Positions 27 to 19,935 of a stretch of 24,000 nt of DNA are shown here, piece by piece. This DNA comes from an uncultured archaeon (lineage in GTDB: Archaea > Nanobdellota > Nanobdellia > Pacearchaeales > GW2011-AR1). Under the pieces are notes generated by a model. That model did not search any database and was not told the origin of the DNA. It saw only the letters and a list, made by a program, of their open reading frames with translations. Location: the NCBI GenBank assembly GCA_902386025.1, contig CABMHR010000002.1:127596-151595 (forward strand), given 5' to 3'. Position 1 is the stretch's first letter. The number at the start of each line of letters is the position of its first letter. Made by a program: the position numbers and the translations under genes.

Positions 27-725
27 ATGCAGAAAAATTTAACAATTGACAGGTTTGAAATACTGCTTGAATCAGCAGTTCAATTTGGAGAAGGAAATAG
101 AATAAGGCATCTCGCAGATATTATTGCAAAATCTTACAGCAAAAAGCCAGAAGAATTAATCTCTTTTTTCAGCAATGACAACAAGCATATTGCAGGAATT
201 GCCACTTCGGCATATTATTCAATTACAGAGGATATTGAACCTGCCCTGTCAATTGAGTATGGGGGGCTTGGAGCAGTTGTAGCAAGCACAAAAATCAGAT
301 TAAAAATAGGACAGTCCCAGTTTTTGTTTTCGAGAAACAGCGGAAATGCATTTTGGTTTTCAGAGAACAGCGGAAATGCATTTGGATATTCTGAAAACAG
401 CGGAGATTCATTCAGAAGTTCAATGAATAGGGGAGAATCTTTTAAGAATTCCATAAATCAAGGGGAATCTTTTCAGGACTCTGAAAACTGCTGGAATTCA
501 TTTGAAAAATCAACAAACAAAGGATATTCTCTATGGGGTTCAAGGAACAATGAACATTCTTTTTATTATTCTGACAACAGCGAAAATGCAGCAAGGGGTT
601 CAACAAATGATAATTATTCTTTTTGCCGCGCGAAAATCAGAGATAATGCCCTAAAAGGAGCAAAAAAGTTTGGAAATTCTTTTTGGCGTTTAGAGGGAAC
701 AAAAGAACCTATTCTTTCGCAATGA
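27..725 (+). CDS. decapeptide tandem-repeat protein, function unknown (C-terminal half possibly beta-solenoid-like)
   Basis: 232-aa ORF. Residues 101-220 form 12 in-register 10-residue units with consensus x-S-x-N-x-G-x-S/A-F-x (FSRNSGNAFW, FSENSGNAFG, YSENSGDSFR, SSMNRGESFK and so on). The frame stays open upstream to nt 3, so the true start may lie outside the window. Confidence 0.6.
   Translation: MQKNLTIDRFEILLESAVQFGEGNRIRHLADIIAKSYSKKPEELISFFSNDNKHIAGIATSAYYSITEDIEPALSIEYGGLGAVVASTKIRLKIGQSQFLFSRNSGNAFWFSENSGNAFGYSENSGDSFRSSMNRGESFKNSINQGESFQDSENCWNSFEKSTNKGYSLWGSRNNEHSFYYSDNSENAARGSTNDNYSFCRAKIRDNALKGAKKFGNSFWRLEGTKEPILSQ
327..686 (+). repeat. coding tandem repeat, 30-bp period, about 12 units
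   Basis: The first units are nearly identical at DNA level (agcggaaatgcatttgg / agcggaaatgcattttgg / agcggagattcattcag) and later units degenerate. The periodicity is exact in the translated frame. Confidence 0.85.
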
Positions 726-1302
726 ATTTGTCTCTTCCTGTCTGTTTCGCGTGATAAAGAGCCTTGTCTGCCCGCTCTTTAAACCTCTTTTTCTTTTCAT
801 TTGGTTTGTATTCTGTTACTCCACCGCTCACAGTCAGATGATGCTTCTTAAGAATGCTGTTTGAATGAATTGCAGTTCCAAGACGCGCTGCAAAATGGAT
901 TGCCTTTTTCAAGTTTGTCTCTGGCAGAAGAATCACAAATTCTTCTCCGCCAAATCTCGCTGCAATATCAGAACGCCTGATTGTCTTTTTCAGAACATTT
1001 GCAAGAACTTTCAAAAGTTCGTCTGCCTTTATGTGTCCGTAAGTATCATTTATCTTTTTGAAAAAATCAATGTCTATCAGAATAAGCGAAAGCTTCTCCT
1101 GCTCTCTTTTTGCCTTTTCTATTTCCATATCAAGTATTGTCTCAAAGAACTTGTTGTTTGATAGCCCGGTTTTCTCGTCGTGAGTAGCAACCTCATAAAG
1201 CATTGAAACAGATTCATTTATTGATTCAAACAAATCCTGAATTTTTTTTCTGAATCTTGGATCAAGAGCGTGAAGTTTATCCTCTATTTTTTTATCCCCC
1301 AT
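709..1302 (-). CDS. stand-alone GGDEF-domain protein (putative diguanylate cyclase)
   Basis: 197 aa carrying GGDEF-domain landmarks: DEKTGLSNNKFF, IDIDFFKKINDTYGH and RFGGEEFVILLPET (intact GGEEF A-site). RRSD (RxxD) lies five residues before GGEEF, at the I-site position. No sensor or TM domain is present. Confidence 0.85.
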   Translation of the reverse strand: MGDKKIEDKLHALDPRFRKKIQDLFESINESVSMLYEVATHDEKTGLSNNKFFETILDMEIEKAKREQEKLSLILIDIDFFKKINDTYGHIKADELLKVLANVLKKTIRRSDIAARFGGEEFVILLPETNLKKAIHFAARLGTAIHSNSILKKHHLTVSGGVTEYKPNEKKKRFKERADKALYHAKQTGRDKFIAKE

Positions 1303-1322: not shown

Positions 1323-1334
1323 ATATTTAAATTT
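1323..1334 (-). promoter_or_regulatory. TATA-like box for the GGDEF gene
   Basis: atatttaaattt is centred about 26 bp upstream of the ATG at 1302 (minus strand). The same spacing recurs at most genes in the window. Confidence 0.4.
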
Positions 1335-1346
1335 AGCCCTAAGAAA

Positions 1347-2138
1347 TTATTTTGAAATTTCACTTGTCTTTTTTTTCTGGATATAAAATTTGTTCACAAC
1401 ATCAAGAGCCTGCTTTCTCTGCTCTGAATTTCCCAACCCTTTCCAGTCAAGAAGAATCAAATCCAAATCCTCTTCTGTTCCTGCAATTGCCTCCCGAACC
1501 ATTTCTTCGGTTATTGGAAGGGCATATTGGGGAATTATATGAGCAAGTGCAATGTTTGAGTTTAGCTGAATTTTGTTGAAATTCGGGCAGTAGTGGGGCC
1601 CGCCTATGCCTATTGCAATTTCTCTGTAAGTATTTACCTTAAAGTCGCTTATTGCTTCGGCAATGGATTTGGCTACTACAAATCCTGCTTTCCTGTCTTT
1701 CCATTCTGTCTCTGTTGCTCCAATCTCTACAAATATGCACGGCTTGTTTATCAAAGGGCCGTGATGAGTGCATTCAAGAGTAAGCTTGTATTCTTTTAGG
1801 TGAAAAAATTCAATATTCTTATCCAGCTTTTCAAAAATATGCTTTTGAAACAATGCAGAAGATTTGCATACTCTTTCTGAAGTTCCTCCGAATTCTGCTT
1901 TTCTCCAGTTTCCGGGAGCGTGAATTGAAATTGTCTTGTCTCCTTTTTCTGACTGATGCTTTGAAGCAAAAATAATAAAATCATAGCTGTTTATTTTGGT
2001 TAAATCAATATTTTCTGTATGAATAATGTCTTCATCAGCCAGATAAAAATTAAATTCTCCAAATTGGCTTAATTGAGTTGTTATGTTTATTCCTGCCTTG
2101 TCAAGCTTGCTCGCAATTATCAAATAATTTTTGTACAT
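1347..2138 (-). CDS. dtdA: D-aminoacyl-tRNA deacylase, archaeal DTD2 type
   Basis: 263 aa. Blocks typical of the archaeal DtdA family as I recall it from Pyrococcus DTD2: ASKHQSEKG...HAPGNW, ECTHHGP, FVEIGATETEW, GIGGPHYCP, AHIIPQYA, LDWKG. Confidence 0.85.
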   Translation of the reverse strand: MYKNYLIIASKLDKAGINITTQLSQFGEFNFYLADEDIIHTENIDLTKINSYDFIIFASKHQSEKGDKTISIHAPGNWRKAEFGGTSERVCKSSALFQKHIFEKLDKNIEFFHLKEYKLTLECTHHGPLINKPCIFVEIGATETEWKDRKAGFVVAKSIAEAISDFKVNTYREIAIGIGGPHYCPNFNKIQLNSNIALAHIIPQYALPITEEMVREAIAGTEEDLDLILLDWKGLGNSEQRKQALDVVNKFYIQKKKTSEISK

Positions 2139-3549: not shown

Positions 3550-6360
3550 ATGTATGAATTTAAGAAGATTGAAGAAGAAACCAGAAAAATCTGGAAAAAA
3601 CAGAATAAGGAAATTGACAAATCAATACAGGACAATCTGAAAAAACCGCTGTTTTCTTTTCTTGAAGGCCCGCCAACTGCAAATGCCCCTCCTGCACTGC
3701 ATCATCTTGAAGTCAGAACTTTCAAGGATATAATCTGCAAATTCAAATATATGAACGGATTTGCTGTTCCAAGAAAAGGCGGATGGGACTGCCACGGACT
3801 GCCTGTTGAAGTTCAAGTTGAAAAAAAACTAAAGCTTGAATCAAAAAAAGATGTTGAAAAATACGGAGCAGACAAATTTATTGAACATTGCAGAAAAGAT
3901 GTTTTCTCAAATATTGAAGAATGGAATAAATCCACAGAGGAATTAAATTACCTTATTGACTTGAAAAATCCCTATGTTACTCTTGAAAATAATTATATTG
4001 AAAGCGTCTGGTGGAGTTTGAAGGAGCTTTACAATAAAAAAATGCTGTATGAAGGGCATAAAGTTGTTCCATTCTGTCCAAGATGCGGAACACCATTATC
4101 AAGCCACGAAGTCGCTCTTGGATATCAGGATGTCACAGAAGAATCTGTTTATATTGCGTTCAAAGCAAAGGGGAAGAACAGAGAATATATTCTGGCGTGG
4201 ACTACGACTCCCTGGACATTGCCTGGAAATGTAGCTCTTGCAGTCAATCCAATAATTGATTATGTGAAAGTCAGGCTTGACGACGGAGACAGCTTAATTC
4301 TTGGGAAAGAAAAAATCGGGCTGCTGAAAGGAAATTACAAAATTGAAAAAGAACTCAAGGGAAAAGATTTGGTTGGAATAGAATATGAGCCTTTGTATGA
4401 CATAAAAGAACTGCAGGACGGGAAATCCTACAAAGTGATTCCTGCTGATTTTGTAACAACAGAAGAAGGAACAGGAATTGTCCACACTGCAGTAATGTAT
4501 GGGGAAGATGATTACAATCTTGGGAAAAAATTCGGGCTTCCGCAGATTCATACTGTCGGGCAGGACGGAAAATTTCTGGATATTGCGCCTGAATTTTTAA
4601 GAGGAAGGTTTGTCAAGGATGCAGAAAAAGACATTAAGGAAGATTTGAAAAAAAGAAATCTGCTCTTTAAAGTAGAAAAAATAACACACGCTTATCCTTT
4701 CTGCTGGAGATGCAATTCTCTTTTGATTTATTACGGAGTAAACTCTTGGTTTATCAAAGTCAGCGAAGCAAGGGACAAGATGACTAAGCTGAACAGCAAA
4801 ATAAACTGGGAGCCGGAACATATCAAAGACGGAAGATTTGGAAAATGGCTTGAAGGTGCAAAAGACTGGGCTCTTTCAAGATTCAAATTCTGGGGGACTC
4901 CTCTTCCAATATGGAAATGCTATTCGTGCGGGGAGAAAAAAATAATAGGCAGTGTTGAAGAGCTCAAAAAAAATTCCACAAAGAAAATTTCAGGAAATAT
5001 TGATTTGCACAAGCCGTGGATTGACAGAGTGAAATTAAAATGCAAATGCGGAAAAGAAATGACAAGAATTCCTGATGTAATTGACTGCTGGTATGATTCT
5101 GGAAGCGCAAGCTTCGCGCAGTTTCATTATCCATTTGAAAACAAGAAAGAATTTGAAAGAAGATTTCCCTATGATTTCATTTCTGAAGCAATAGATCAGA
5201 CAAGGGGATGGTTCTACACTCTTCACGTGCTGGGAACACTGCTATTTGACAAGCCAGCATACAAAAATGTAATCTGCGCAGGGCATATTGTAGACGAGAA
5301 AGGCGAGAAAATGTCAAAATCAAAGGGAAATGTGATAAAGCCCACAGAAATAATTGAAAAAACAGGAGTTGATGCAGTAAGACTGCAGTTCTGCACAAGC
5401 GAAGCAGGAAACCAGAAAAGATTTTCATTTGAACTTATGAAAGAGGAAGTAATTCCTTTGCTGAATGTCTTGTACAACTGCTACAATTATTACAAACAGC
5501 TTGAAAATAAAAAAACAAAACTTCGCGTTGAAGATAAATGGATTTTAAGCAGATTAAATTCAGTTATTGAAGAGGTTACAGATGGATTAAACAATTTTTT
5601 GCTGAACAAGCCGTTTGAAGCAATCTCAAATTTTGTTGTAAATGACTTTTCAAGGCAGTATATCAAGCTGACAAGAGACAGGGAAGACACAAAAGAAGTT
5701 GTGGGGGAAGTTCTGGAAAAAATTTCGCTGATACTTGCTCCATTTGCTCCTTACATTTCGGAATATATCCATTCTGAATTTTCAAAAGAATCTGTTCATC
5801 TTTCAAAATGGGCAAAAGCAGACAAAAAGAAAATAGACAAGAAGCTGGAGGAAGAATTCAAATTTGTTTTTGAAATAATTGAAAAAGGGCTTTCTCAAAG
5901 AGACAAAGTGCAGATTGGGCTGAAGTGGCCTTTGGGAAAAGCAGTTGTTTATTCAAAAGAAAAAAAATTATCAAAAGAACTTGAAGAAATTGCAAAGAAT
6001 CAGCTTAATGTAAAATTAATTGAATTAAAAATTGGAAAAGAATTTTCTGTTGAACTTGATGTGAAGCAGACTCCTGAACTTGAAGCAGAAGGATATGCAA
6101 GAGAAATGTCAAGGCAGGTGCAGGCATTCAGAAAAGAGCTTGGATTGAACAAGAACAACACAATTGAACTTTCAATTTTCTGCGATGATGAACTTAAAAA
6201 AATTCTTGAGAAGTGGAAAACTTTTATTATGAATAGGACAAATTCCAAAAAATTGGAATTTTTTTCGGAAAATGTTACAACTGACAAGGAAAGATTTAAA
6301 AAGAATATTGAATTTAAAATCAAAGATAAAAGAGGAAAGATAGCAATTATAAAAAAATAG
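3550..6360 (+). CDS. ileS: isoleucyl-tRNA synthetase (type 2-like, short C-terminus)
   Basis: 936 aa with GPPTAN..., GWDCHGLPVE, the editing-domain block WTTTPWTLPGN, Zn-knuckle motifs CPRCGT and CWRCNS, DQTRGWFYTL and KMSKSKGN. The HIGH position reads ALHH (see findings). Confidence 0.93.
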   Translation: MYEFKKIEEETRKIWKKQNKEIDKSIQDNLKKPLFSFLEGPPTANAPPALHHLEVRTFKDIICKFKYMNGFAVPRKGGWDCHGLPVEVQVEKKLKLESKKDVEKYGADKFIEHCRKDVFSNIEEWNKSTEELNYLIDLKNPYVTLENNYIESVWWSLKELYNKKMLYEGHKVVPFCPRCGTPLSSHEVALGYQDVTEESVYIAFKAKGKNREYILAWTTTPWTLPGNVALAVNPIIDYVKVRLDDGDSLILGKEKIGLLKGNYKIEKELKGKDLVGIEYEPLYDIKELQDGKSYKVIPADFVTTEEGTGIVHTAVMYGEDDYNLGKKFGLPQIHTVGQDGKFLDIAPEFLRGRFVKDAEKDIKEDLKKRNLLFKVEKITHAYPFCWRCNSLLIYYGVNSWFIKVSEARDKMTKLNSKINWEPEHIKDGRFGKWLEGAKDWALSRFKFWGTPLPIWKCYSCGEKKIIGSVEELKKNSTKKISGNIDLHKPWIDRVKLKCKCGKEMTRIPDVIDCWYDSGSASFAQFHYPFENKKEFERRFPYDFISEAIDQTRGWFYTLHVLGTLLFDKPAYKNVICAGHIVDEKGEKMSKSKGNVIKPTEIIEKTGVDAVRLQFCTSEAGNQKRFSFELMKEEVIPLLNVLYNCYNYYKQLENKKTKLRVEDKWILSRLNSVIEEVTDGLNNFLLNKPFEAISNFVVNDFSRQYIKLTRDREDTKEVVGEVLEKISLILAPFAPYISEYIHSEFSKESVHLSKWAKADKKKIDKKLEEEFKFVFEIIEKGLSQRDKVQIGLKWPLGKAVVYSKEKKLSKELEEIAKNQLNVKLIELKIGKEFSVELDVKQTPELEAEGYAREMSRQVQAFRKELGLNKNNTIELSIFCDDELKKILEKWKTFIMNRTNSKKLEFFSENVTTDKERFKKNIEFKIKDKRGKIAIIKK

Positions 6361-7576: not shown

Positions 7577-9277
7577 CTACATTTCTTCTATTGCTTCAAT
7601 TCCAAGAAGATAGAGGGAATTTTTCAGAACCTGCCTGAAAGAATTTATCAAAGACAGGCGGAAATCTTCCCTGTCTGAATTTATGACAGGACAGGCGTGA
7701 TAAAATTCATTGAACAGCTGGGAAAGCTGATAGGAATAATTTGCAATTGCTGCAGGATTCCTGTTTGAAAAAGAATTAAGAACAATATCCTTGAATTGAA
7801 GCAGTTTTTTTATCAGTTCAAATTCTGCAGATTCCAGTTTTCCTTTTTCAAGATTTTTTTTGAAATTCTTTCCTGCTTTTTTTATTATTGAACTTGCTCT
7901 TGCATAGCTGTAAAGAATATATGCTCCTGAATCGCCTTCAAAATTTAAAGCATCTTCTTTGCTGAAAATTATAACCCTGTTTGAACTTTGTTTCAGCATA
8001 AAATATTTTATTGAAGCTATTGAAATTTTCAATGCCCTATTTTCCAATTCTTTTTCTGATATTAAAGGCTGTCTTTTTTTTATTTCTTCCTTGGAGTAAT
8101 CTGTCATTTCTTTCAAAAAATCAGAATATAAAATGTTCTCGCCTGTTCTTGAAGACATTTTTCCTGTAGGCAGGCGGACTTCAGAGAACGGAACAAATTC
8201 GCAATTGCCTGCCTTTTTGAATTTCATAAGTTCAAGCGTCTTGAACAGCTGAGCCATATGCAAAGACTGCGCTGCACCTATAACATAAATATTTTTATCC
8301 AGTTTGAATTTTTTGAATTTTTCTTCAGCCAAAGCCAAATCTTTTGCAGAATACAAAACTGTCTTGTCTTTTCTAAGCAAAACCCAAACCCCAAGATTAT
8401 ATTTCTTCAAATCCACAATAATCGCATCATCGCTGATTTCAGCAATTCTTTTTTTCAATAATTCTTCTGTAATTTTCTTTCCACTCTTCTCAACTTTGCT
8501 TTCAAAAAAATAAACATCAAAATGCGTGTTTAATTCTTTGTATATTTTTACAAATGAATCCAAGCTTAGCTTTCTTGTTTTTTTCCAGAGAGAAACCAGT
8601 GATTTGTCTTTTCCTTCTGACAATTTCCTGTTTATGACATCAACTTCTTTCTGCAATAATTCATTTTCTGCCAGATGTTTTACAGAATCAACATAAATTG
8701 AAGCAATCCACGATTCGTCTTTTCTTAATTTTTCTTTTGAATGATATTTTTTGTAGCACCATATCCATTTTGCAACGTGCATCCCAGAATCCCCCTGATA
8801 GTTTGCCCTCAAAACTTTTTCTCCTGAAAATTCAAAAATTCTGGCTAAACTTTCTCCTATGCTTGTCCCTCTGATATGCCCAACGTGAAATGCCTTGTGT
8901 GTATTTGCCTGCGAGAATTCAATCATTATTTTCTCCTTCTTTTTTGCATCCGGCTTTCCGAAATTATCTTTTTCTTTTAATATTTCTTTGATTAAATTGC
9001 CTGCAATTTTTTCCCTGTTCAAAAAGAAATTTATGTAAGCCCCCTTTGCCTGAATTGATTCAAAGTTTTCTGAAGAATTAATTTTGTTTTTTATTTCAGA
9101 TGCAATCTTGACAGGATTGTCCTTTAATTTTTCCTTTAATGAAAAGCACGGAAAAGAATAATCGCCCAAATCAGAAGAAGGCGGAATTTCCAAACTGCCC
9201 TCAATTTCCTCTTCTTTTAATTCAATTCCCTTTTCTGCAAGAGCTTTTTTCAAAATTTTTGCAATCAGCTTCTTCAT
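7577..9277 (-). CDS. argS: arginyl-tRNA synthetase
   Basis: FSQANTHKAFHVGHIRGTSIGESL (HVGH), GKMSSRTGENI, and the family-typical C-terminal ...EEM. Start is set at ATG 9277 (MKKLIAKIL) because a TATA-like box (complement of 9300-9307) lies about 26 bp upstream. The ORF-track start at 9295 would leave no promoter space. Confidence 0.92.
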   Translation of the reverse strand: MKKLIAKILKKALAEKGIELKEEEIEGSLEIPPSSDLGDYSFPCFSLKEKLKDNPVKIASEIKNKINSSENFESIQAKGAYINFFLNREKIAGNLIKEILKEKDNFGKPDAKKKEKIMIEFSQANTHKAFHVGHIRGTSIGESLARIFEFSGEKVLRANYQGDSGMHVAKWIWCYKKYHSKEKLRKDESWIASIYVDSVKHLAENELLQKEVDVINRKLSEGKDKSLVSLWKKTRKLSLDSFVKIYKELNTHFDVYFFESKVEKSGKKITEELLKKRIAEISDDAIIVDLKKYNLGVWVLLRKDKTVLYSAKDLALAEEKFKKFKLDKNIYVIGAAQSLHMAQLFKTLELMKFKKAGNCEFVPFSEVRLPTGKMSSRTGENILYSDFLKEMTDYSKEEIKKRQPLISEKELENRALKISIASIKYFMLKQSSNRVIIFSKEDALNFEGDSGAYILYSYARASSIIKKAGKNFKKNLEKGKLESAEFELIKKLLQFKDIVLNSFSNRNPAAIANYSYQLSQLFNEFYHACPVINSDREDFRLSLINSFRQVLKNSLYLLGIEAIEEM

Positions 9278-9281
9278 AAAG

Positions 9282-9307
9282 TTTATAACCCGCATTTGTT
9301 TTTATAT
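9282..9307. promoter_or_regulatory. two crossed TATA boxes in the 33-bp argS / FTR-like divergent spacer
   Basis: tttataa (9282-9288) lies 26 bp before the plus-strand ATG at 9311. atataaaa on the minus strand (9300-9307) lies 26 bp before the minus-strand ATG at 9277. Confidence 0.45.
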
Positions 9308-9962: not shown

Positions 9963-10121
9963 TGCGGGTGAAAGGGTTCGAACCTTCGCAGGCACTAAGC
10001 CACAGGATTTCTTATCTCCTTCCCTAAAGGATTATCTCAAGGGAAAGTTGACTGTCAAGAAAACCGTTAGGTTGTCTTCCAATCTTAAGTCCTGCCCATT
10101 TGACCACTCTGGCACACCCGC
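9963..10121 (-). tRNA. tRNA-Leu (anticodon UAA) with a 75-nt intron at the canonical 37/38 position; CCA not encoded
   Basis: Manual fold of the reverse complement gives the following. Acceptor GCGGGTG/CACCCGC with discriminator A. D arm CCA(G)-AGTGGTCAA-(A)TGG. Anticodon stem CAGGA/TCCTG with loop CTTAAG|intron|A. Long variable arm TGGCTTAGTGCCTGC. T arm GAAGG-TTCGAAC-CCTTT. Confidence 0.9.
10009..10083 (-). other. tRNA intron (about 75 nt) in a bulge-helix-bulge-like context
   Basis: Anticodon-loop CUUA pairs with UAAG near the intron 3' end, forming a 4-bp central helix. It is flanked by the 3-nt bulges AG|A and AA|A that carry the predicted splice sites. The outer helix is weak (2 bp). 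An internal hairpin TTCCCT...AGGGAA is present. Boundaries are ambiguous by 1 nt because of A runs. Confidence 0.75.
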
Positions 10122-11214: not shown

Positions 11215-12003
11215 ATGAATAGAAAAAGGGGAATTTTTCTGCTGATTTTTTTGATACTGGTTCTTTTTGCTGTCAATTACAAGTTTCTCGACGAAAAGAT
11301 TAAAGAGTTTTTGTATGAAAGTGATTCAGCAGTCGCTGAAAGGATAATTGACGGAGACACAATTGTCATAAATAACAATACTCACATAAGGCTGCTGGGG
11401 ATTAATACTCCTGAAAAAAAAGAATATTATCACTACGAAGCAATGAATTTTCTTTCGGGATTAATTCTTAATAAAACAATAAAACTGGAATACGGAAAAG
11501 AAAGGACAGACTTGTATGGAAGGACGCTTGCATATGTAATTCTAAACGGGGAAAATATTAATATTGAACAAGTAAGAAATGGATTTGCAAATTTTTACAT
11601 TTATGACAGAGACAAATATACTTCTGAACTTGAAAATGCATGGAATGAGTGCATTTCCAGCGGAAAAAATCTGTGCGAAAAGTCAAAAGATGAATGTGCA
11701 AATTGCATTGAATTAAAAAAGCTGGATGCAAAAAATCAGGAGATTATTCTCTACAATAACTGCAACTTTAACTGCAATCTTGCAGGTTGGAGCATCAAGG
11801 ATGAAGGAAGAAAAAATTTCTTTTTCCAAAAATTTGTTCTTGAACAAAACAAGGAAATAAAAATAATCACAGGAAATGAAACAGACAGCAGGGATATTTT
11901 GTTTTGGAGGGGGGAAGATTATGTCTGGACAGAAACAGGAGATAGTTTATTCTTAAGAGACGATAAAGGAAAGCTTGTGCTTTGGAAAGAAATTAACAGA
12001 TAA
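11215..12003 (+). CDS. membrane-anchored staphylococcal-nuclease-like (SNase) nuclease with C-terminal lamin-tail-like domain
   Basis: 262 aa with an N-terminal TM (GIFLLIFLILVLFAV). The SNase core reads IIDGDTIVI, IRLLGINTPE, ERTDLYGRTLAYV, QVRNGFA. The C-terminal region CIELKKLD...EIILYNN...LAGWSIKDEG...FFFQKFVLEQNKEIKIITG has the LTD pattern. Confidence 0.82.
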   Translation: MNRKRGIFLLIFLILVLFAVNYKFLDEKIKEFLYESDSAVAERIIDGDTIVINNNTHIRLLGINTPEKKEYYHYEAMNFLSGLILNKTIKLEYGKERTDLYGRTLAYVILNGENINIEQVRNGFANFYIYDRDKYTSELENAWNECISSGKNLCEKSKDECANCIELKKLDAKNQEIILYNNCNFNCNLAGWSIKDEGRKNFFFQKFVLEQNKEIKIITGNETDSRDILFWRGEDYVWTETGDSLFLRDDKGKLVLWKEINR

Positions 12004-12038
12004 AGAAAATTTTTAAAGAATGCCTGATGGATAATCAG

Positions 12039-13193
12039 ATGAAGAAATGGATATATGCTGGAATTTTTTCTTTAAGTGCATTTATTGCTGGATGCAAACC
12101 AAATCCTGCAATTCCAACTGTGAGTCCAAATATAGATATTGCCCCTGTAACTAACCTGTATGTCAATCCATCTTCTGGAGAAGAGCCTCTTTCTGTAAAT
12201 ATTAAAGTTAATGGAACAGACACAAATGGGAATGATGACATAAAAAAATATGATGCTTATATTGATATTGGAAATGACAAAATAATTGACGAGACAATTT
12301 CGCAGTCAGTTCCTATTGATGCAACAAGAACTTTTGACAAAGGAAATGTAATGATTTACGGGCAATGCACAGATTCTGGGGGATTGAAAGATAAAAAAGG
12401 GCTGGAAATAATTGTCTCTGAAAAAATTCCATTAAATCCGCCTGAAGCAATTCTTGATATTAATCCTCTTTCAGGGGAGCGTCTGCTTGAGGTGAATATA
12501 AAACTTAATGGAACAGGCAAAGATGGAAAGGACATAAAGTTATATCAAATTGAGATAGATGCAAAAGAAGACGGAATAATCGATGAAATAATTTCGCAGT
12601 CAGTTCCTATTGATGCAACAAGAACTTTTGACAAAGGAAATGTAATGATTTACGGGCAATGCACAGATTCTGGAAATTTAATTTCAGAAAGAGCAAATAA
12701 AGAAGTAGTTGTTTCAGAAAGAGCAGATTTGACTGCAAACATAACTCTTAATTTCAGCACAGATATAGGATATAAAATAGGAGACAAGTTAAATTTTTCA
12801 GGAATAGTGCAGAATAATACTTCAAATGAGATAATAGTTGATAATTCAAAAAAAGACAGCTTGGAATACAAACTTTTGAAAAATGGAGTAGAATTAATAC
12901 ACGAAAAGATGAATGAAGACGCACTTCTCAAACTGCGTCCTGAAGGAACAATAAAAGTTGAATACAACAATGATTTATTAACATTCACAGTAACAAATGC
13001 AAAAATAAATTACAAAGGGCTGGAAATAGATACAGACTGGCTTGATAACGAGAAATATCAATATTCTTCAAATCAAAGCAGCTACAAATTTGCAGAGAGC
13101 GGAAATTATTTGATTGAAACAGATTTAAAATATTCTGTGAATAACAATGCTTATTCAGTAAAGTTTACAAAAGATTTTATTGTTGAGGAATAG
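12039..13193 (+). CDS. putative surface lipoprotein with two PKD-like repeats
   Basis: Signal peptide with lipobox (MKKWIYAGIFSLSAFIAGC). Two repeats of about 98 aa (NPSSGEEPLSVNIKVNGT... and NPLSGERLLEVNIKLNGT...) share an identical 28-aa core. Start is set at ATG 12039 because ttttaaag (12011-12018) lies about 25 bp upstream; the ORF track starts at 12027. Confidence 0.72.
   Translation: MKKWIYAGIFSLSAFIAGCKPNPAIPTVSPNIDIAPVTNLYVNPSSGEEPLSVNIKVNGTDTNGNDDIKKYDAYIDIGNDKIIDETISQSVPIDATRTFDKGNVMIYGQCTDSGGLKDKKGLEIIVSEKIPLNPPEAILDINPLSGERLLEVNIKLNGTGKDGKDIKLYQIEIDAKEDGIIDEIISQSVPIDATRTFDKGNVMIYGQCTDSGNLISERANKEVVVSERADLTANITLNFSTDIGYKIGDKLNFSGIVQNNTSNEIIVDNSKKDSLEYKLLKNGVELIHEKMNEDALLKLRPEGTIKVEYNNDLLTFTVTNAKINYKGLEIDTDWLDNEKYQYSSNQSSYKFAESGNYLIETDLKYSVNNNAYSVKFTKDFIVEE
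12296..12379 (+). repeat. 84-bp perfect direct repeat, copy 1 (inside PKD-like repeat 1)
   Basis: aatttcgcagtcagttcctattgatgcaacaagaacttttgacaaaggaaatgtaatgatttacgggcaatgcacagattctgg is identical to 12590-12673 (offset 294 bp). Confidence 0.9.
12590..12673 (+). repeat. 84-bp perfect direct repeat, copy 2 (inside PKD-like repeat 2)
   Basis: Identical to 12296-12379. The flanking parts of the 294-bp repeat unit are clearly diverged. Confidence 0.9.
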
Positions 13194-13234
13194 TTAGATT
13201 TAAATATTACAATAGACAAATTTTAACAAGAAAA

Positions 13235-14788
13235 ATGAGGAAATTAATTTTCACATTAATGTCTGCAGTTCTTTTAATTAGTTTTATAAGCGCCTGCACT
13301 CCGCTTGAGAATTTTATGTCTCCAGAAGCGACAAATATGACAATAATAATCACGCAGGATACAACAACAGATTTATTTTCTATGAATACTGCAGGATTCA
13401 GCTGGGATACTCAAAGTATTGCTATTCCTGATTTTGCTACAATTAGTATTCCAATATCAAAAATATTAGAAGGGGTGAATTTAAGGGCAGATTTAAAGGA
13501 CGGAGAATCACTGCCTGTATTTTCAAATGTCCAGCTTTCAAATGAACAATTCCCTATAAAGGTAGGAAAAGGAGATAGTTCTATTTCTGATGTTGCATTA
13601 TTGAATCTTCTTGGAGGAGATTTTACAGGGGAAATATCCCAAGATACAAACGAGCTTAATTTACTTGTGCAAAAAGCTCCATCTCTTACAACAAAAGCAG
13701 ACGGAAATTATTATTTCATTAAAGACGGAACAGATTATACTTTTGGATATGACAAAGGATTTGGAGACATACCAAGCGAATACAAGAATAATATAGCTAA
13801 AGCAATTGAAGATGGGGTTAATTCAATTAATCTTCAAACACTTATAGAAAACAACCTTTTCCCATCATTAAATCTTGATAGCCAATTATCTTTTCTTCAG
13901 CAGTTAGGATTTACTTCATCCGTTGATTTTGAAAATGCTGTCCTTGAAGGCACAGATTCTGAAGTAAGCGTTGATTTGTCAAGTGTTGAGTTTCAGGACG
14001 GAACTTATCACATACCTGTAACAATAACTCCTTCATCTGGAGAAAGCCCTGTAACAAAAAACATAACTGTGATATTAAATGGGATAGTTAATGAAGGGAG
14101 CGATAAAACAACCAGCGACATATACATCCCTTCAGGATTTGGAATTAAAGATTTAATAAACCAAATAAAAGGGCTTCCTGTAGGAACAACAATACAAATT
14201 AGTGTATCTGATATTCAGCCTTCTGGATTAAGCAATCTTGGACACACTAATATGCTGAAATATTTTGTAATAAATGTCAGCCAAGAGCCAAGTTCTGATG
14301 CGCAAATAGATTTCACAATTCTAAAATCTTACATAAATGATGCTGACAAAATCAGTTTATATGTATGGGGGCCTGCAAGTTCTTCTTGGACTAAGCTTTC
14401 AACAACTTTTTCAGGCTCAACTGCAGACGGATTGTCTTATTCATTTTATGCAATAACACCTCACTTCTCAACATTTATGGTTGGAGAAGACACAAGCTCT
14501 ACAAATACAGTGCATCATCATATAGGAATGACTACTTTGATATCTTCGCCAGAAAATAATAATGCTTCTGCTAAACCAGAAGAGAGCCCAATAACTCTTG
14601 AAAACCCTCCAGCAAAAGAAGGATTATTTGCAAGAATAGGGAAATTTCTGACAGGTGCAGTAACAGGAGTTGGAAATGCAGTGAAGCAGAATCCAGTAAT
14701 GGGAGTTGCAGCATTGCTTACTTTCTTTATAGCAGTTGTTGGAGTAACAATTACTTCTATAAAGTTCAGAAGAAGAGCCAGAAAGTAA
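13235..14788 (+). CDS. large secreted or surface-anchored protein (lipobox N-terminus, C-terminal TM anchor)
   Basis: 517 aa. N-terminus MRKLIFTLMSAVLLISFISAC (lipobox ISAC). The segment ...WTKLSTTF...YSFYAITPHFSTFMVGE resembles the PGF-pre-PGF type surface-protein domain. The C-terminus is a hydrophobic helix plus basic tail (VAALLTFFIAVVGVTITSIKFRRRARK). Confidence 0.68.
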   Translation: MRKLIFTLMSAVLLISFISACTPLENFMSPEATNMTIIITQDTTTDLFSMNTAGFSWDTQSIAIPDFATISIPISKILEGVNLRADLKDGESLPVFSNVQLSNEQFPIKVGKGDSSISDVALLNLLGGDFTGEISQDTNELNLLVQKAPSLTTKADGNYYFIKDGTDYTFGYDKGFGDIPSEYKNNIAKAIEDGVNSINLQTLIENNLFPSLNLDSQLSFLQQLGFTSSVDFENAVLEGTDSEVSVDLSSVEFQDGTYHIPVTITPSSGESPVTKNITVILNGIVNEGSDKTTSDIYIPSGFGIKDLINQIKGLPVGTTIQISVSDIQPSGLSNLGHTNMLKYFVINVSQEPSSDAQIDFTILKSYINDADKISLYVWGPASSSWTKLSTTFSGSTADGLSYSFYAITPHFSTFMVGEDTSSTNTVHHHIGMTTLISSPENNNASAKPEESPITLENPPAKEGLFARIGKFLTGAVTGVGNAVKQNPVMGVAALLTFFIAVVGVTITSIKFRRRARK

Positions 14789-14846
14789 GATTTCTAAACA
14801 GAAGCTAAATAGGAAGAATTTTAAACCTGTTAATAATTAAAAAAAG

Positions 14847-15263
14847 ATGAAATATCCTTACCAAGATGAAGATTCTTTCTTTAAAGAACAGAAGAGGATG
14901 ATAGACGAATTAGAAACATCTAAAGAAGAAAAAGAAAGACTTTATTCTCTTCTTGATGAAACTGTTAAGAATAATGAATATATGAAAAGTATGCAAATGA
15001 GAGATGAATACCTTAATTTTACAGAGAAACTAGCATATTTAGTAAGCGAAGCAGCAAGAATAGTGGAAATTAACTCAAAAACAAGGCAATCATTGAAAAT
15101 AGCATCTATAAATGCAAAGATTAATGCAATAAAGATAAATGAAGCATCCAGACAAATTACAGAATTAAGCGATAGGATTGTGGAAAGCGTTAAAGGAGAA
15201 GAGAGAAGAAGAGTTCTTAATGAAATAACAAACGGAATGATTAATCAGTATAATAAAGATTAG
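14847..15263 (+). CDS. hypothetical coiled-coil protein
   Basis: 138-aa charged, heptad-rich ORF without a signal peptide. TATA-like attttaaacc (14818-14827) lies about 25 bp upstream. Confidence 0.5.
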   Translation: MKYPYQDEDSFFKEQKRMIDELETSKEEKERLYSLLDETVKNNEYMKSMQMRDEYLNFTEKLAYLVSEAARIVEINSKTRQSLKIASINAKINAIKINEASRQITELSDRIVESVKGEERRRVLNEITNGMINQYNKD

Positions 15264-15315
15264 ATATAATTCTAATACATATAAATTAATAAATAACTCT
15301 TTATGGGGGTTAGAC

Positions 15316-15768
15316 ATGAATAAACTGACAACTTTGTTGTGTTCAGTAGCATTAACGGCAACAGCTTTTGCTTCTCCCCCAGAATCAATAATTCCTAAAA
15401 GTGATCCTTATTTTTACATCCCCCGTGAAGTATGGGAGGCAACAGGCCCAGTTTATGTAATAGAAGAAGCTGATAAAAACAGAAGCTCTGGGATATATTG
15501 GTGGGATAAAAATTTAAACAGGGAAATAGATGAATACGAGATATACCCTTATATTCCTCTTGAACCTTACGAAAAAAATCAGCTTTACATTTTTGATTAT
15601 AGCGAAAAAGGATTATTTGAAACTTATTGGTGGGATAAAAATTCAGATAATGAACAGCAGGAAGATGAAATTTTTGTAGATATTAATGGGGACGGAATTC
15701 CAGATTGCAATTTTCTTGAATATTGCAGAGCTATTGAAGCAGAAAAAAGAGCCGCAAATATAGTTTAA
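15316..15768 (+). CDS. secreted hypothetical protein with internal YWWDKN repeat and a DxNGDGxxD calcium-loop-like motif
   Basis: 150 aa with a Sec-type signal (MNKLTTLLCSVALTATAFA). The motif YWWDKN occurs twice, and DINGDGIPD is present. GGGGG lies 6 nt upstream of the ATG. Confidence 0.6.
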   Translation: MNKLTTLLCSVALTATAFASPPESIIPKSDPYFYIPREVWEATGPVYVIEEADKNRSSGIYWWDKNLNREIDEYEIYPYIPLEPYEKNQLYIFDYSEKGLFETYWWDKNSDNEQQEDEIFVDINGDGIPDCNFLEYCRAIEAEKRAANIV

Positions 15769-16300: not shown

Positions 16301-17173
16301 ATGAATAAAAAGAAAGTGATGGACAAAAACGGACAATTTTTTCTTATAGGGGCAATTGTTATAATCGTTGTTATTGTCAGTATTGTTACAATTTCAAATT
16401 ACACGCAGAAAAAAGACATAGTCAAGCTTTATGACTTGGGGCAGGAGCTTGGAATTGAAAGCCAGCAGGTTTTGGATTATGGAACATACAGCCAGCTTGA
16501 TGATGCGCAGATGAAAGTGCTGATGCAAAATTTTATCCAGAATTATGTAAATTATGTGAAAGAAGAAAAAAATATTTATTTTGTATACGGAAACAAGAAT
16601 GAAGTCAATGCAATTGGATATCAGCAGTTGAGCAGCGAACCTGTTTGCATAAAGTTAAATGCTGAAGCAAAGAGCCCTGTATGCGGAGACGGAATTGTCA
16701 ATCAAAACAGCGAAGAATGCGACGACGGAAATTCTGACAGCCTTGACGGATGCTCTTCTGAATGCAAGCTTGAAAAATACAATGCTTATTCTTCTTCAGA
16801 AGAAAATGACAATAACAAATGCGGGGATGGAATTATTGACAAAAGCGACGGAGAATACTGCGATACAAAGGAGTTAAACCTCAAAACATGCATTTCACTT
16901 GGATTTGCTTCTGGGACATTAAAATGCGTTGACTGCGGATTTGATGCAACTAACTGTATCAAACCAGAAGAGCCAGAATGTGTAAGCTTAACGATAGGAG
17001 AAACACAAACATTCCCTGCAGGAACTTCTGAAGGAATAAGCACAGTAGTAATAAGAATAGATGTAACAGAATACCAATTCAGATTAAAGGAAGGTGAAAA
17101 TTTCTATTTTATAATATGGCAGAAGATTGGAGGAGAAAAACACGTTGTCACCAGTGAAGAGACTCAACCTTAA
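16301..17173 (+). CDS. prepilin-like protein with cysteine-rich CGDG repeats (candidate adhesin or minor pilin)
   Basis: 290 aa. The N-terminus MNKKKVMDKNG|QFFLIGAIVIIVVIVSIV looks like a class III signal peptide. The middle holds two Cys-rich units (CGDGIVNQNSEECDDGNSDSLDGCSSEC and CGDGIIDKSDGEYCD...C...CVDCGFDATNC) of the Myxococcus-type cysteine-rich repeat pattern. Confidence 0.68.
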   Translation: MNKKKVMDKNGQFFLIGAIVIIVVIVSIVTISNYTQKKDIVKLYDLGQELGIESQQVLDYGTYSQLDDAQMKVLMQNFIQNYVNYVKEEKNIYFVYGNKNEVNAIGYQQLSSEPVCIKLNAEAKSPVCGDGIVNQNSEECDDGNSDSLDGCSSECKLEKYNAYSSSEENDNNKCGDGIIDKSDGEYCDTKELNLKTCISLGFASGTLKCVDCGFDATNCIKPEEPECVSLTIGETQTFPAGTSEGISTVVIRIDVTEYQFRLKEGENFYFIIWQKIGGEKHVVTSEETQP

Positions 17174-17720
17174 TAAGAAAGGGCTGAGCGTAGTAATCGG
17201 ATATGTCTTGCTGATGGCAATTTCAATAGTGATGAGCCTTTTAGTCTATCAGTGGATAAAAACATATGTTCCAAAAGAAGCTTTAGCCTGCTCTGACGGA
17301 ACTTCTCTTTTTATAAAATCTGTAAGCTATAACTGCGATTCAAGAATCCTGCAGATAACCTTAAAAAACAACGGAAAATTTGGAATTGACGGCTATTTCA
17401 TTTATGCTTCAAATAAAGAAGGAGATGAACTGGCAACAATAGATTTATCTTCTAATCTCCAGACTTCAAGCGACAAGGAAAAAGCAATAAAACTTTCTGC
17501 AAATTCTATCAGATTTGTCGGATTGGAAAATCCTGCTCTGGAAAATTTCCTGCTTCCTGGAAACAGCCAGGCAAATTCATTCAGCATACCTGCAGAATAT
17601 GGAACGCTTAAAAAAATAGAAATAGTCCCAACAAGAATACAGGAATCAGACAATCAAAAGAGAACTGTAAGCTGTTCGGATTCAAAAGTCAGCGAGGTAT
17701 TAACCTGCAGCACAAATTAA
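17145..17720 (+). CDS. archaeal type IV pilin-like protein
   Basis: Class III signal ...KRLNLNKKG|LSVVIGYVLLMAISIVMSLLVY. The start is uncertain. TTG 17145 lies 11 nt after GGAGG (17129-17133), and TTG 17127 or GTG 17154 are alternatives. The ORF overlaps the 3' end of the upstream gene. Confidence 0.68.
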   Translation: MSPVKRLNLNKKGLSVVIGYVLLMAISIVMSLLVYQWIKTYVPKEALACSDGTSLFIKSVSYNCDSRILQITLKNNGKFGIDGYFIYASNKEGDELATIDLSSNLQTSSDKEKAIKLSANSIRFVGLENPALENFLLPGNSQANSFSIPAEYGTLKKIEIVPTRIQESDNQKRTVSCSDSKVSEVLTCSTN

Positions 17721-17765
17721 ACAAAGAGTTTAAAAATAATATTAACATAGATATCCTATAAAAAG

Positions 17766-18242
17766 ATGGTGGAAAAGATGAGAATTAAAAAAGGGAAAAA
17801 AGGGCTGTCTCCTATAATTACAACTGTCCTGCTTATCACGCTTACAATTGTTATTATTGCAATAGTATTTTTATGGTTTAGGGGGATGGTTCAGGAAGGA
17901 ATTACAAAATTCGGAAAGAATATTCAGCTGGTATGCAACGATGTGCAGTTTGATGCAAGCTACAGCAGCGGAACAGTAAATATAGTAAATAATGGGAATG
18001 TCCCCCTTTACAGAATTAACATAAAAACCTCGTCGAGCGGAGGAAGTTATCTTACAAAAGATATAAAGGATTTGAGTGATTCTTGGCCAACTACTGGACT
18101 TAAGCAGGGAGGAACTTTCTCTGCTGCATTAAATCTTGAAAACCCAACAAAGATAACATTATTCCCTGTTTTAATCGGAACGTCAACAAGCGGAAAAAAG
18201 ACTTTTGTATGCGAGGGGCAGTATGGCAAGGATGTTTTATAA
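17766..18242 (+). CDS. archaeal type IV pilin-like protein
   Basis: 158 aa. RIKKGKKG|LSPIITTVLLITLTIVIIAIVFLWF matches the archaeal pilin N-terminal pattern (G-x-S-P-[VI]-I...). Confidence 0.75.
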   Translation: MVEKMRIKKGKKGLSPIITTVLLITLTIVIIAIVFLWFRGMVQEGITKFGKNIQLVCNDVQFDASYSSGTVNIVNNGNVPLYRINIKTSSSGGSYLTKDIKDLSDSWPTTGLKQGGTFSAALNLENPTKITLFPVLIGTSTSGKKTFVCEGQYGKDVL

Positions 18243-18750
18243 AAGAAAAAACGGGCTTTCCACAATTGTTGTCACAATGATTCTTATTGCTTTAAGCCTT
18301 GCAGCAATTGCCCTCGTATGGGGATTTGTCAGCAATATGATAAACGGGCAGATTAAAAACAGCGAAGCCTGCTTTGGAAATTACAACAAAGTCCAGATTA
18401 ATCCCCAATATACCTGCTATGAAACAACAAACAATGTGAATTACAATTTGAGATTCTCCTTGAGCGTCGGAGATGTCAGTGTTGACAAAATAATTGTTTC
18501 TGTATCTTCTGCAAGTGCAACAAAAAGCTACACAATAACTAATTCCGCAAGTTCTGTAAGCGGACTTGAAATGTATCCAAATGCAGGAGATGGAAAAGTT
18601 ATTGCCCCAGATAAAAATTCAGGATTGACTTACAAGGCAACAGGATTTGGAAGCATAGATTCCATAAAAATCGCCCCTGTTCTTGGAGGAACCCAGTGTG
18701 ATGTTTCTGATTCAATTACTGAAATAGGAGATTGTTCCCTTATGGTTTAA
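18223..18750 (+). CDS. archaeal type IV pilin-like protein
   Basis: MARMFYKRKNG|LSTIVVTMILIALSLAAIALVWGFV. ATG 18223 is preceded by GAGGGG 5 nt upstream, and ATG 18232 is an alternative. The ORF overlaps the upstream gene's stop codon. Confidence 0.7.
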   Translation: MARMFYKRKNGLSTIVVTMILIALSLAAIALVWGFVSNMINGQIKNSEACFGNYNKVQINPQYTCYETTNNVNYNLRFSLSVGDVSVDKIIVSVSSASATKSYTITNSASSVSGLEMYPNAGDGKVIAPDKNSGLTYKATGFGSIDSIKIAPVLGGTQCDVSDSITEIGDCSLMV

Positions 18751-18756
18751 GTCAGC

Positions 18757-18776
18757 ATTAGTTATTTAAATTAAAA
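18757..18776 (+). repeat. 20-bp perfect direct repeat, left copy
   Basis: cattagttatttaaattaaa is identical to 19900-19919. It lies 6 nt after the stop codon of the fourth pilin gene. Confidence 0.9.
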
Positions 18777-18817
18777 CTTTAGAAAAAGTTAAATTTAATA
18801 TAAAAATATTTTATTGT

Positions 18818-19792: not shown

Positions 19793-19899
19793 AATAAGAA
19801 ATAAAAATAAGATTATTTAAATATTCCTATTAGTGTGTAATTTAATAGTGATTACATCTGATAAATAGAACTTTTGGGATTTAAGATAATTAACTATTA

Positions 19900-19919
19900 C
19901 ATTAGTTATTTAAATTAAA
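19900..19919 (+). repeat. 20-bp perfect direct repeat, right copy; contains the TATA box of the fifth pilin gene
   Basis: cattagttatttaaattaaa. Its ttatttaaat core is centred about 25 bp upstream of the ATG at 19936. Confidence 0.9.
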
Positions 19920-19935
19920 TTTTACTTGTTATTCT

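Follow-up and report, generated by a model that had tools for sequence, protein, structure and literature searches.

Do archaea possess diguanylate cyclases (DGCs) of their own? The question is raised by a gene for a 197 amino acid GGDEF protein, which lies near one end of a 24,000 nt stretch of DNA from an uncultured archaeon of the Pacearchaeales (GenBank assembly GCA_902386025.1, contig CABMHR010000002.1, positions 127,596 to 151,595); this whole stretch is called the window below. Judged by its sequence, the gene encodes a genuine and catalytically intact GGDEF cyclase, of an enzyme type which is in itself ordinary. What is new is the group to which it belongs, a well-defined archaeal clade of stalk-GGDEF proteins which carry a characteristic lysine (Lys-type) and are vertically inherited in Pacearchaeota-type DPANN archaea.

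Signalling by cyclic di-GMP (c-di-GMP) is still held to be all but absent from archaea. According to a census of HD-GYP domains (bioRxiv 10.1101/2021.11.05.467447), its machinery "appears limited to bacteria". Braun et al. 2021 devoted a single sentence to more than 300 archaeal BLAST hits, many of them from Asgard and DPANN genomes (PMC8646023), Römling 2022 (PMC10086821) wrote that the presence of GGDEF domains "need[s] to be confirmed in archaeal contigs", and according to a 2023 review c-di-GMP is undetected in archaea (PMC10249747). GGDEF domains are unmentioned in the DPANN genomics papers found by our literature search. In public databases such proteins are already annotated as GGDEF proteins, including one 100% identical to the protein of the window ("Diguanylate cyclase, GGDEF domain [uncultured archaeon]", on a 189 kb contig). 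The locus of the window and its orthologues amount to the confirmation at contig level which the earlier literature asked for.

Identity of the GGDEF protein

The profile PF00990 matched residues 39-191 of the protein over positions 1-160 of its 161, the active site (A-site) included, with E = 4.1e-44 and 150.6 bits (cut-off 23.8), and TIGR00254 matched it with E = 4.8e-49 and 166.3 bits (cut-off 37.4). No further domain was detected with the Pfam and NCBIfam profiles, nor was a transmembrane segment. A sequence-only reading of the window, which preceded this work, had proposed such a profile search and had described the protein as little more than a GGDEF domain. The description is apt, the domain being preceded only by a helical N-terminus of about 40 residues. 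The same reading had called the cyclase sensor-less, which is true in that no sensor domain was found but takes no account of a conserved N-terminal stalk of helical form, in which the motif A-L-D-P-x-F is invariant. The consensus length of the stalk-GGDEF family is 195-197 amino acids.

Catalytic and inhibitory residues

Conservation was counted in an alignment of 121 family members and in a second alignment of 58 members. Invariant in 121/121 sequences are D77, D79, F81, K82, N85, G89, H90, D94, L97, R109, D112, R116, F117, the GGEEF motif (G118-G-E-E-F122), K186, G189 and R190, while R66 is invariant in the 58-member alignment. The GGEEF and RRSD motifs had been taken for an intact A-site and an intact inhibitory site (I-site), and both are present as such, with the five residues IAARF as the spacer between D112 and G118. 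By alignment to PleD (PDB 2WB4), from the range of which the query number equals the PleD number minus 250, residues N85, D94, R109, D112 and E120 correspond to PleD N335, D344, R359, D362 and E370. We take PleD N335 and D344 to be guanine ligands and K442 and R446 to be phosphate ligands, their counterparts being N85, D94, K186 and R190. The numbering of GacA (Asn339, Ser348, Asp374) agrees with this mapping at an offset of +4, and the roles of the metal- and guanine-binding residues are also known from the GacA structures (PMC6456294). The protein has the GG(D/E)EF A-site of a DGC, the metal-binding Asp of beta-1, and the guanine and phosphate ligands.

Aligned with WspR, the RRSD motif falls on R242xxD245 and R66 on R198. 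In WspR, residues R242, D245 and R198 bind the c-di-GMP of the I-site, R198 being the second Arg contributed by the neighbouring domain (PMC2270323). An RxxD placed five residues before GGEEF, together with a second Arg such as R66, is the I-site of a product-inhibited DGC.

For comparison with bacteria we used the 76 nearest bacterial GGDEF domains among the GTDB matches listed, to which the archaeal family is identical at the catalytic positions. GGEEF and all metal, base and phosphate ligands are unchanged across the clade down to 42% identity. Such invariance of the A-site and the ligands would be expected only of a domain whose catalysis is under selection.

An archaeal clade at a conserved locus

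A search of 5.8 billion proteins recovered more than 120 clusters of 188-206 amino acids with 69-82% identity to the GGDEF protein of the window. All named members of these clusters were from Pacearchaeota, Nanoarchaeota or Nanoarchaeia, on contigs of up to 623 kb. The labels met in the clade as a whole were Pacearchaeota, Nanoarchaeota and "Woesearchaeota", and a search seeded by its most divergent member (P0257) named only Pacearchaeota within the clade. In the GTDB species representatives, the patterns DFFKKIND and FGGEEFVI, which also match many bacterial GGDEF proteins, led to at least four loci of the archaeal clade (L006-L009). Among the matches listed, identities to the query were 64-69% within the clade and 52% for the divergent L009, as against 45% at most for bacterial GGDEF domains.

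Genomic context was compared at eleven homologous loci. The GGDEF gene is located directly or nearly directly downstream of DTD2 at nine of the eleven, on contigs of up to 464 kb; a DTD2 gene is found upstream on the same strand in L001-L003, L005-L008, L086, L087, L088 and L090, sometimes with one gene in between. A larger block, composed of the arginyl-tRNA synthetase gene (ArgRS), TrmB, the isoleucyl-tRNA synthetase gene (IleRS), Dph5, small open reading frames (ORFs) and DTD2 followed by GGDEF, is common to the window and to L001 (447 kb), L003 (464 kb), L005 (247 kb), L086 (370 kb), L087 (240 kb) and L007, the overall list of block contigs comprising 447, 464, 247, 370, 240 and 37 kb. The short contig L006 covers only the Dph5-DTD2-GGDEF part of the block, and L088 retains the block even with a GGDEF protein that shares only 50% identity with the query. 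A second context, near TFS and CDC48, houses divergent copies in L009 (Pacearchaeota UBA73, 52%) and L089 (46%). DTD2 itself is a marker of the syntenic block and not a functional partner of the GGDEF protein.

Two loci carry bacterial labels: L008 (DATKUW010000087.1, "Bacillota") and L090 (DATJQE010000036.1, "Patescibacteria"). As both carry the same DTD2-GGDEF pair, they are archaeal contigs mis-binned into bacterial metagenome-assembled genomes (MAGs); L090 additionally has Dph5, RNase HII and SMC, arranged as in Pacearchaeota.

The protein identities between the window and the other loci were 64-73% for GGDEF, 62-77% for DTD2, 57-70% for Dph5 and 41-43% for ArgRS; the GGDEF gene diverges no faster than its housekeeping neighbours. 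The GC content of the window is uniform (0.30-0.39), and the GGDEF gene, with a GC of 0.375, a third-position GC (GC3) of 0.359 and a codon-usage deviation of 0.34, is in the range of its neighbours. Synteny, neighbour-like identity, native GC and codon usage and the archaeal-type TATA box described below together establish the gene as a long-resident, vertically inherited gene of Pacearchaeota-type DPANN archaea, and any transfer from bacteria must have been ancient. The isolated or recent horizontal acquisition implied by the sequence-only reading does not agree with a large syntenic clade showing core-gene-like identity, native composition and a native promoter. Neither was its concern that the segment might be bacterial or chimeric borne out, the same block recurring in independent assemblies with archaeal markers. 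As the gene has been kept in strongly reduced genomes of the Pacearchaeota type, it should have an important function.

In some Pacearchaeota genomes the genes for a predicted c-di-AMP synthase and the predicted c-di-GMP synthase are adjacent. Stand-alone diadenylate cyclase genes (DAC, PF02457, 190-196 amino acids) are found convergent to GGDEF in L003 (10592-11164, minus strand), L004 (884-1456, minus strand) and L087 (11106-11696, minus strand). In L003 and L004 the two genes abut end to end with zero intergenic gap, and in L087 one gene is inserted between them. The window reaches only 708 nt beyond the GGDEF gene and the equivalent of the DAC region lies outside it.

Clade signature in the wide turn and before the base-binding Asp

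Three positions set the archaeal family apart. The Leu of the DxLT turn is replaced by K44 in 121/121 members, while it is Leu in 74/76 of the bacterial comparison set; position 50 is Asn in 116/121 and Arg in 0/121 members, against Arg in 66/76 of the bacterial domains; and A93 takes the place of a Gly which is present in 76/76 of them. The N-K for N-R and the A-D for G-D deviations singled out by the sequence-only reading are real, i.e. N49-N50-K51 in place of N-R-R and A93-D94, and both are fixed in the family. The unusual N50 and A93 are thus fixed clade characters and not noise.

The identity of position 50 follows from a constant spacing of 44 residues to the base-binding Asp (PleD 300/344, PadC 537/581, GacA 304/348, query 50/94), by which N50 is equivalent to PleD R300, PadC Arg537 and GacA Tyr304. 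In 94% of DGCs this position holds the cross-dimer Arg, a residue that reaches over to the other half-site and stacks on its guanine (Hallberg et al. 2019, PMC6456294). The query, with N50, lacks this residue, which presumably favours guanine; the Arg is not strictly defining, 6% of DGCs being without it. The Hypr GGDEFs, which make cyclic GMP-AMP (cGAMP), carry Tyr, Ser, Ala or Gln in its place, and the N-K deviation is noteworthy in that it touches a position influencing product choice in these enzymes (PMC6456294).

The signature also holds in more distant relatives. When 1.84 billion cluster representatives were searched exhaustively, 496,388 GGDEF relatives were found, and among the best 150 of these every single-domain protein of 175-233 amino acids with an intact N-terminus combined the D-x-K-T turn with a residue other than Arg after the Asn, at identities as low as 42%. 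In the sample seeded by P0257, 26/26 proteins of this size were of the K-type and none had the Arg. The wider clade has N, H, S, Y, F, M or A at the cross-dimer position and never Arg.

The two replacements are also coupled outside the clade. Long GGDEF proteins of bacterial type were distributed as Leu with Arg 184, Leu with another residue 5, Lys with another residue 4 and Lys with Arg 0 (Fisher p = 2e-6). The four bacterial Lys-type domains fell outside the archaeal clade in the neighbour-joining tree. To our knowledge, a coupling of the DxLT Lys with the loss of the Arg after Asn has not been described before. The covariation in bacteria and the lack of clustering with the archaeal clade suggest a convergent, compensatory pair of changes. 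The bacterial sequences concerned, all long multidomain GGDEF proteins with Lys and no Arg, read DTKTGLHNS (P0151), DPKTGLPNS (P0152), DAKTGLLNA (P0168) and DSKTGLLNA (P0247). What the DxLT Leu and the cross-dimer Arg contribute to GGDEF catalysis can be studied in the archaeal clade as in a natural experiment.

N-terminal stalk and structure model

The AlphaFold2 model (predicted local distance difference test, pLDDT, 88; predicted template modelling score 0.77) consists of a short helix (3-11), a long helix (15-40) and a GGDEF fold with a pLDDT of 86-98. The model has the canonical palm fold, and Foldseek matched it to more than 50 DGC chains at E of about 1e-17 and probability 1.00; the best of the PDB matches, which are active DGCs with a coiled-coil stalk, were 3I5C (GCN4-zipper-WspR), 7E6G (SiaD-SiaC), PleD, PadC and 6TTR (Caulobacter DgcB). 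The template modelling (TM) score was 0.82 to 7e6g_A (query-normalised) and 0.82/0.84 to 6TTR, which is of nearly equal length.

Hydrophobic residues in helix 15-40 are found at 17, 21, 24, 28, 32, 35 and 38, a spacing which, judged by eye, is heptad-like, and the model is compatible with a stalk that probably serves dimerisation. At its start, A12, L13, D14, P15 and F17 are invariant in 58/58 sequences and at least 98% conserved in the 121 members. By analogy to SiaD, which is activated by a partner, SiaC, binding to conserved stalk motifs (PMC8457831), A-L-D-P-x-F is possibly a partner-docking site. No candidate gene for a docking partner was conserved beside the GGDEF gene in the loci examined.

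Putative promoter

The gap between DTD2 and GGDEF is 44 nt long, contains the TATA-box-like element TTTAAATA and has no Shine-Dalgarno sequence. The same box, or TTTATATA, is found at the same distance in L001, L003, L005, L006, L086 (where the start is GTG) and L087. Archaeal TATA boxes are centred some 26-27 nt before the transcription start. As the box of the GGDEF gene starts 29 nt before the ATG, its position implies that the predicted transcript is leaderless or near-leaderless and of archaeal type. This seems to be the rule in the genome of the window, as far as can be predicted from its gene starts: TATA-like boxes are located 27-30 nt before at least seven genes (GGDEF, an 85 amino acid ORF, Dph5, IleRS, TrmB, phosphoribosyl pyrophosphate synthase and a metallophosphoesterase) and Shine-Dalgarno sequences are absent at these starts. 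The motif occurs in 14 copies in the window as against 6.95 expected, a number reached by 0/100 shuffled sequences. A different arrangement is seen in L008, where a GC-rich hairpin (GCGGGATCGAAAACCCGC, approximately 540-596) precedes a GGAGG located 8 nt from the ATG and no TATA box is present at the standard distance. No evidence for expression of the GGDEF protein was found in the supplements of a Pacearchaeota metaproteome paper.

Comparison with known systems

The archaeal protein shares with WspR and PleD (PDB 3BRE, 3I5C, 1W25, 2V0N) the fold, GGEEF, the Asn and Asp guanine ligands, the metal-binding Asp and Glu, the Lys and Arg phosphate ligands, the RxxD five residues upstream, the second Arg of the I-site (WspR R198, here R66) and a helical stalk (PMC2270323). 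It differs from them in having no receiver or other input domain, in its archaeal host and leaderless-type promoter, and in its Lys for the DxLT Leu, Asn for PleD R300 and Ala for the Gly before the base-binding Asp. In the combination of a stalk or coiled coil with a GGDEF domain and no sensor domain it resembles SiaD of P. aeruginosa (7E6G) and the DgcB construct (6TTR). The SiaD model NF038266 was its best NCBIfam equivalog match (E = 4.8e-49), which at 167 bits is far below the cut-off of 290. Unlike SiaD, it has a shorter stalk, an unrelated A-L-D-P-x-F motif and a partner which is only hypothesised; neither a siaABC-like context nor a SiaC-like gene was found in the window and the loci examined, where the neighbours are DTD2, Dph5, IleRS and others.

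The Hypr GGDEFs (GacA, Bd0367; 5VS9/6D9M) likewise have a residue other than Arg at the cross-dimer position, GacA Tyr304 being equivalent to N50. They are distinguished by a Ser or Thr at the position facing the Watson-Crick edge of the base (Ser in GacA) and a GGDEF motif, whereas the query has Asp94 and GGEEF, the combination that gives only c-di-GMP. GGDEF proteins reported earlier from archaea are a single REC-PAS-PocR-GGDEF-HD-GYP ORF of Methanocella arvoryzae (CAJ37382), a REC protein with a degenerate GGDEF domain of "Ca. Micrarchaeum", and the unexamined BLAST hits from Asgard and DPANN genomes (PMC5847659, PMC8646023). By comparison, the present clade is single-domain, intact by sequence, syntenically fixed and found in many Pacearchaeota-type genomes.

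Proposed mechanism and alternatives

The analysis establishes to which family the protein belongs, that its invariant residues are intact, what fold it has, that the gene is vertically inherited and that its setting is archaeal. The following model goes further in proposing that the protein dimerises by its stalk, uses GTP, makes c-di-GMP and is docked by a partner. In our judgement the protein is quite probably a minimal, stalk-dimerised, product-inhibited c-di-GMP synthase native to Pacearchaeota-type DPANN archaea. The N-terminal helix of approximately 26 residues would form a parallel coiled coil and so pair two GGDEF domains, each of which would bind one Mg-GTP by D77, E120, N85, D94, K186 and R190. 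E121 may act as general base across the dimer, on the model of what has been proposed for Glu375 of GacA (PMC6456294), and two GTP would be condensed to c-di-GMP. The product would then cross-link the domains at R109 and D112 and at R66 of the neighbouring domain, switching the enzyme off and capping the cellular level of c-di-GMP. Because there is no ligand-binding sensor domain, control would lie in this product inhibition, in the activity of the gene's own promoter, archaeal and leaderless in type, and possibly in a protein docked on A-L-D-P-x-F. GTP specificity is favoured by Asp94 together with GGEEF, as an Asp at the Watson-Crick-face position combined with GGEEF made exclusive diguanylate cyclases of GacA and WspR mutants (PMC6456294).

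Several observations weigh against this model. There is no archaeon in which c-di-GMP has been detected to date (PMC10249747, PMC8646023). In the neighbour-joining tree the archaeal clade is only weakly supported by bootstrapping (55/200, 27%), for which reason its monophyly rests mainly on the Lys signature, the shared architecture and the synteny. The stalk is modelled with moderate confidence only (pLDDT 55-75, 66-75 for helix 15-40), and the changes at N50, A93 and K44 could make kinetics or product differ. Familiar partners are also missing: no EAL, HD-GYP, PilZ or T2SSE_N/MshEN domain was found in the ORFs of the window, at E<=1 for the unannotated ones, in agreement with the sequence-only reading, which had seen no EAL, HD-GYP or PilZ partner; no c-di-GMP riboswitch was found in the 24 kb window; and no EAL, HD-GYP, PilZ, MshEN or riboswitch was found within 10 kb to either side at nine loci including L001, L003, L005 and L086-L090.

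The missing partners and the remodelled residues leave some room for a native archaeal cyclic-dinucleotide pathway built on the remodelled GGDEF domain, with receptors and degrading enzymes unlike EAL, HD-GYP and PilZ and with either a new use of c-di-GMP or another dinucleotide, an idea which we regard as less probable while keeping it in view. A new use of c-di-GMP might for example involve the c-di-AMP cyclase abutting in some genomes, or interaction with the host. It is rather unlikely that the enzyme is active with a main product other than c-di-GMP, i.e. 3',3'-cGAMP or a mixture, owing to the remodelled periphery of its active site. N50 is at the site of PadC Arg537 and GacA Tyr304, at which the Hypr enzymes have Tyr, Ser, Ala or Gln and at which Y304R in GacA moves the product toward c-di-GMP (PMC6456294). 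The diversity of this position in the wider clade, Arg always excepted, and an Ala directly beside the base-binding Asp point in the same direction. The primary determinant, however, is Asp94, invariant in 121/121 and not Ser; GacA S348D, alone or with GGEEF, is a pure diguanylate cyclase, whereas Ser with GGEEF is inactive (PMC6456294). Moreover, the covariation of Lys44 with the loss of Arg in unrelated bacterial GGDEFs (Lys with non-Arg 4/4, Leu with non-Arg 5/189, p = 2e-6) suggests compensation and not a shift in specificity, and the I-site, which recognises c-di-GMP, is strictly conserved. That same invariant I-site, the lack of turnover or receptor partners found nearby, the dependence of DPANN archaea on hosts and the existence of GGDEF proteins that are receptors by means of RxxD could also be accommodated by a domain acting mainly as a sensor of c-di-GMP or other nucleotides, or as a scaffold, for instance for nucleotides of bacterial or archaeal hosts. 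This we consider improbable, since GGDEF domains of the receptor type normally have a degenerate A-site, while here GGEEF and the ligands are invariant down to 42% identity.

The remaining explanations fare worse. A signalling-nucleotide cyclase of antiviral defence, similar to those of cyclic oligonucleotide-based antiphage signalling systems (CBASS) or to Cas10, was suggested by a match to the Cas10/Cmr2 palm2 domain (PF22335) at E = 0.0018 and 18.8 bits, below the cut-off of 27, a weak similarity due to the palm fold common to both. It is very improbable: neither the protein nor its neighbours had a PADLOC match, there is no adjacent effector gene and there are no cas genes, and the fixed housekeeping position, in place of a variable island, and the highly conserved sequence are unlike those of defence genes. 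With 0 PADLOC matches and a housekeeping locus, the defence-system cyclase was rejected. That the gene is a bacterial contaminant, belongs to a chimeric assembly or has recently been transferred horizontally into a single genome is barely credible. GGDEF domains are overwhelmingly bacterial, curated censuses have regarded archaeal MAG hits as potential contaminants (PMC5847659; bioRxiv 10.1101/2021.11.05.467447), and two close homologues bear bacterial labels (P0007 "Patescibacteria", L008 "Bacillota"). Yet the same block recurs in independent assemblies and samples, where archaeal markers flank it on contigs of 240-464 kb; both bacterial-labelled contigs carry the DTD2-GGDEF block and hence are mis-binned archaeal ones; GC, GC3 and codon usage are native and the TATA promoter is archaeal; and the nearest bacterial GGDEFs are, among the matches listed, at most 45% identical, as compared to 64-82% within the clade. 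As far as the data allow, synteny, composition and promoter led us to reject this explanation as well.

With a soluble protein of 197 residues, the question of archaeal c-di-GMP synthesis becomes directly testable. As no familiar partner was found near the gene, the protein is also a starting point for the discovery of archaeal receptors.

Other genes in the window

The features discussed here and above are collected in Table 1.

Table 1. Coordinates of the GGDEF gene, its sequence features and neighbouring genes in the window.
Feature	Position	Strand	Remarks
GGDEF gene, stalk + GGDEF, 197 aa	709..1302	minus	ORF from ATG; PF00990, TIGR00254, AlphaFold2, Foldseek
A-site G118-G-E-E-F122	937..951	minus	reverse complement GGC GGA GAA GAA TTT; all five invariant 121/121
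I-site R109-R-S-D112 (RxxD)	967..978	minus	reverse complement AGG CGT TCT GAT; R109, D112 invariant 121/121
D77-I-D-F-F-K-K-I-N85-D-T-Y-G-H-I-K-A93-D94	1021..1074	minus	metal-binding Asp, guanine-binding Asn85/Asp94, clade-specific Ala93
Wide turn D42-E-K-T-G-L-S-N-N-K-F-F53	1144..1179	minus	signature K44 (canonical Leu), N50 (canonical cross-dimer Arg)
Helix 15-40, predicted coiled-coil stalk	1183..1260	minus	AlphaFold2 secondary structure
Motif A12-L-D-P-R-F17	1252..1269	minus	candidate partner-docking or helix-capping site
TATA-box-like element TTTAAATA	1324..1331	minus	starts 29 nt upstream of GGDEF ATG; inferred promoter
DTD2	1347..2138	minus	PF04414 E=1e-55; co-directional upstream neighbour of GGDEF
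IleRS	3550-6360	plus	
ArgRS	7577-9295	minus	
tRNA, 159 nt	9963-10121	minus	Rfam 41.9 bits; 78-nt anticodon-loop insert; long variable arm
Pilus locus	16.3-23.5 kb		FlaI-like, FlaJ-like genes

The archaeal character ascribed to the neighbourhood by the sequence-only reading was confirmed by the DTD2 match to PF04414, by a diphthine synthase gene (Dph5) with a match to the equivalog model TIGR00522 above cut-off and by the presence of a TrmB gene. Its intron-bearing tRNA was recovered by Rfam, with the insert located in the anticodon loop, and was undetected by ARAGORN. Inside the conserved block, aminoacyl-tRNA synthetase genes look, from their sequences, as if they had been replaced in place by divergent versions. 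The ArgRS of the window has the syntenic position of its counterparts in L001, L003 and L005, yet is only 41-43% identical to them, the adjacent TrmB being 87-89% identical; its IleRS is 80% identical to the copy of L001 and 41-43% to those of L003, L005 and L007.

The prepilins reported earlier for this DNA correspond to several N-termini resembling class III signals, e.g. MVEKMRIKKGKKGLSPIITTVLLI with a weak Pilin_N match, which are accompanied by genes for a FlaI-like pilus-type ATPase and a FlaJ-like membrane protein. Five pilin-like proteins are encoded upstream of these two genes (16301-20478), and a run of proteins without family assignment at 12027-15768; the two regions, which include a lipoprotein-like protein of 388 amino acids with an internal duplication and a protein of 517 amino acids with a C-terminal membrane anchor and basic tail, are probably a cell-surface and pilus gene cluster. 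The sequence-only reading had speculated that this locus might be an output of the GGDEF protein. We rejected such a link, as the ATPase has no MshEN-like N-terminus and the pilus locus is not within 10 kb to either side of the GGDEF gene at the other loci examined, i.e. the linkage is not conserved.

The gene at 11215-12003 (plus strand) encodes a fusion of a staphylococcal-nuclease and a lamin-tail domain behind an N-terminal hydrophobic segment, and was kept beside ArgRS in L088 (1-232). Its product is probably a secreted or surface nuclease, which would be in keeping with a DPANN archaeon that scavenges nucleotides.

Convergent to the GGDEF gene, and overlapping its 3' end by 17 nt, is an ORF of 232 amino acids (27-725, plus strand) which from residue 96 or thereabouts consists of approximately 12 tandem decapeptide repeats with a consensus of roughly G-N/E-S-F-x-x-S-x-N-S. 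It had no match in Pfam, NCBIfam or PADLOC, and none by tblastn in the homologous loci. In L088 a faint pentapeptide-repeat protein is encoded at a similar position.

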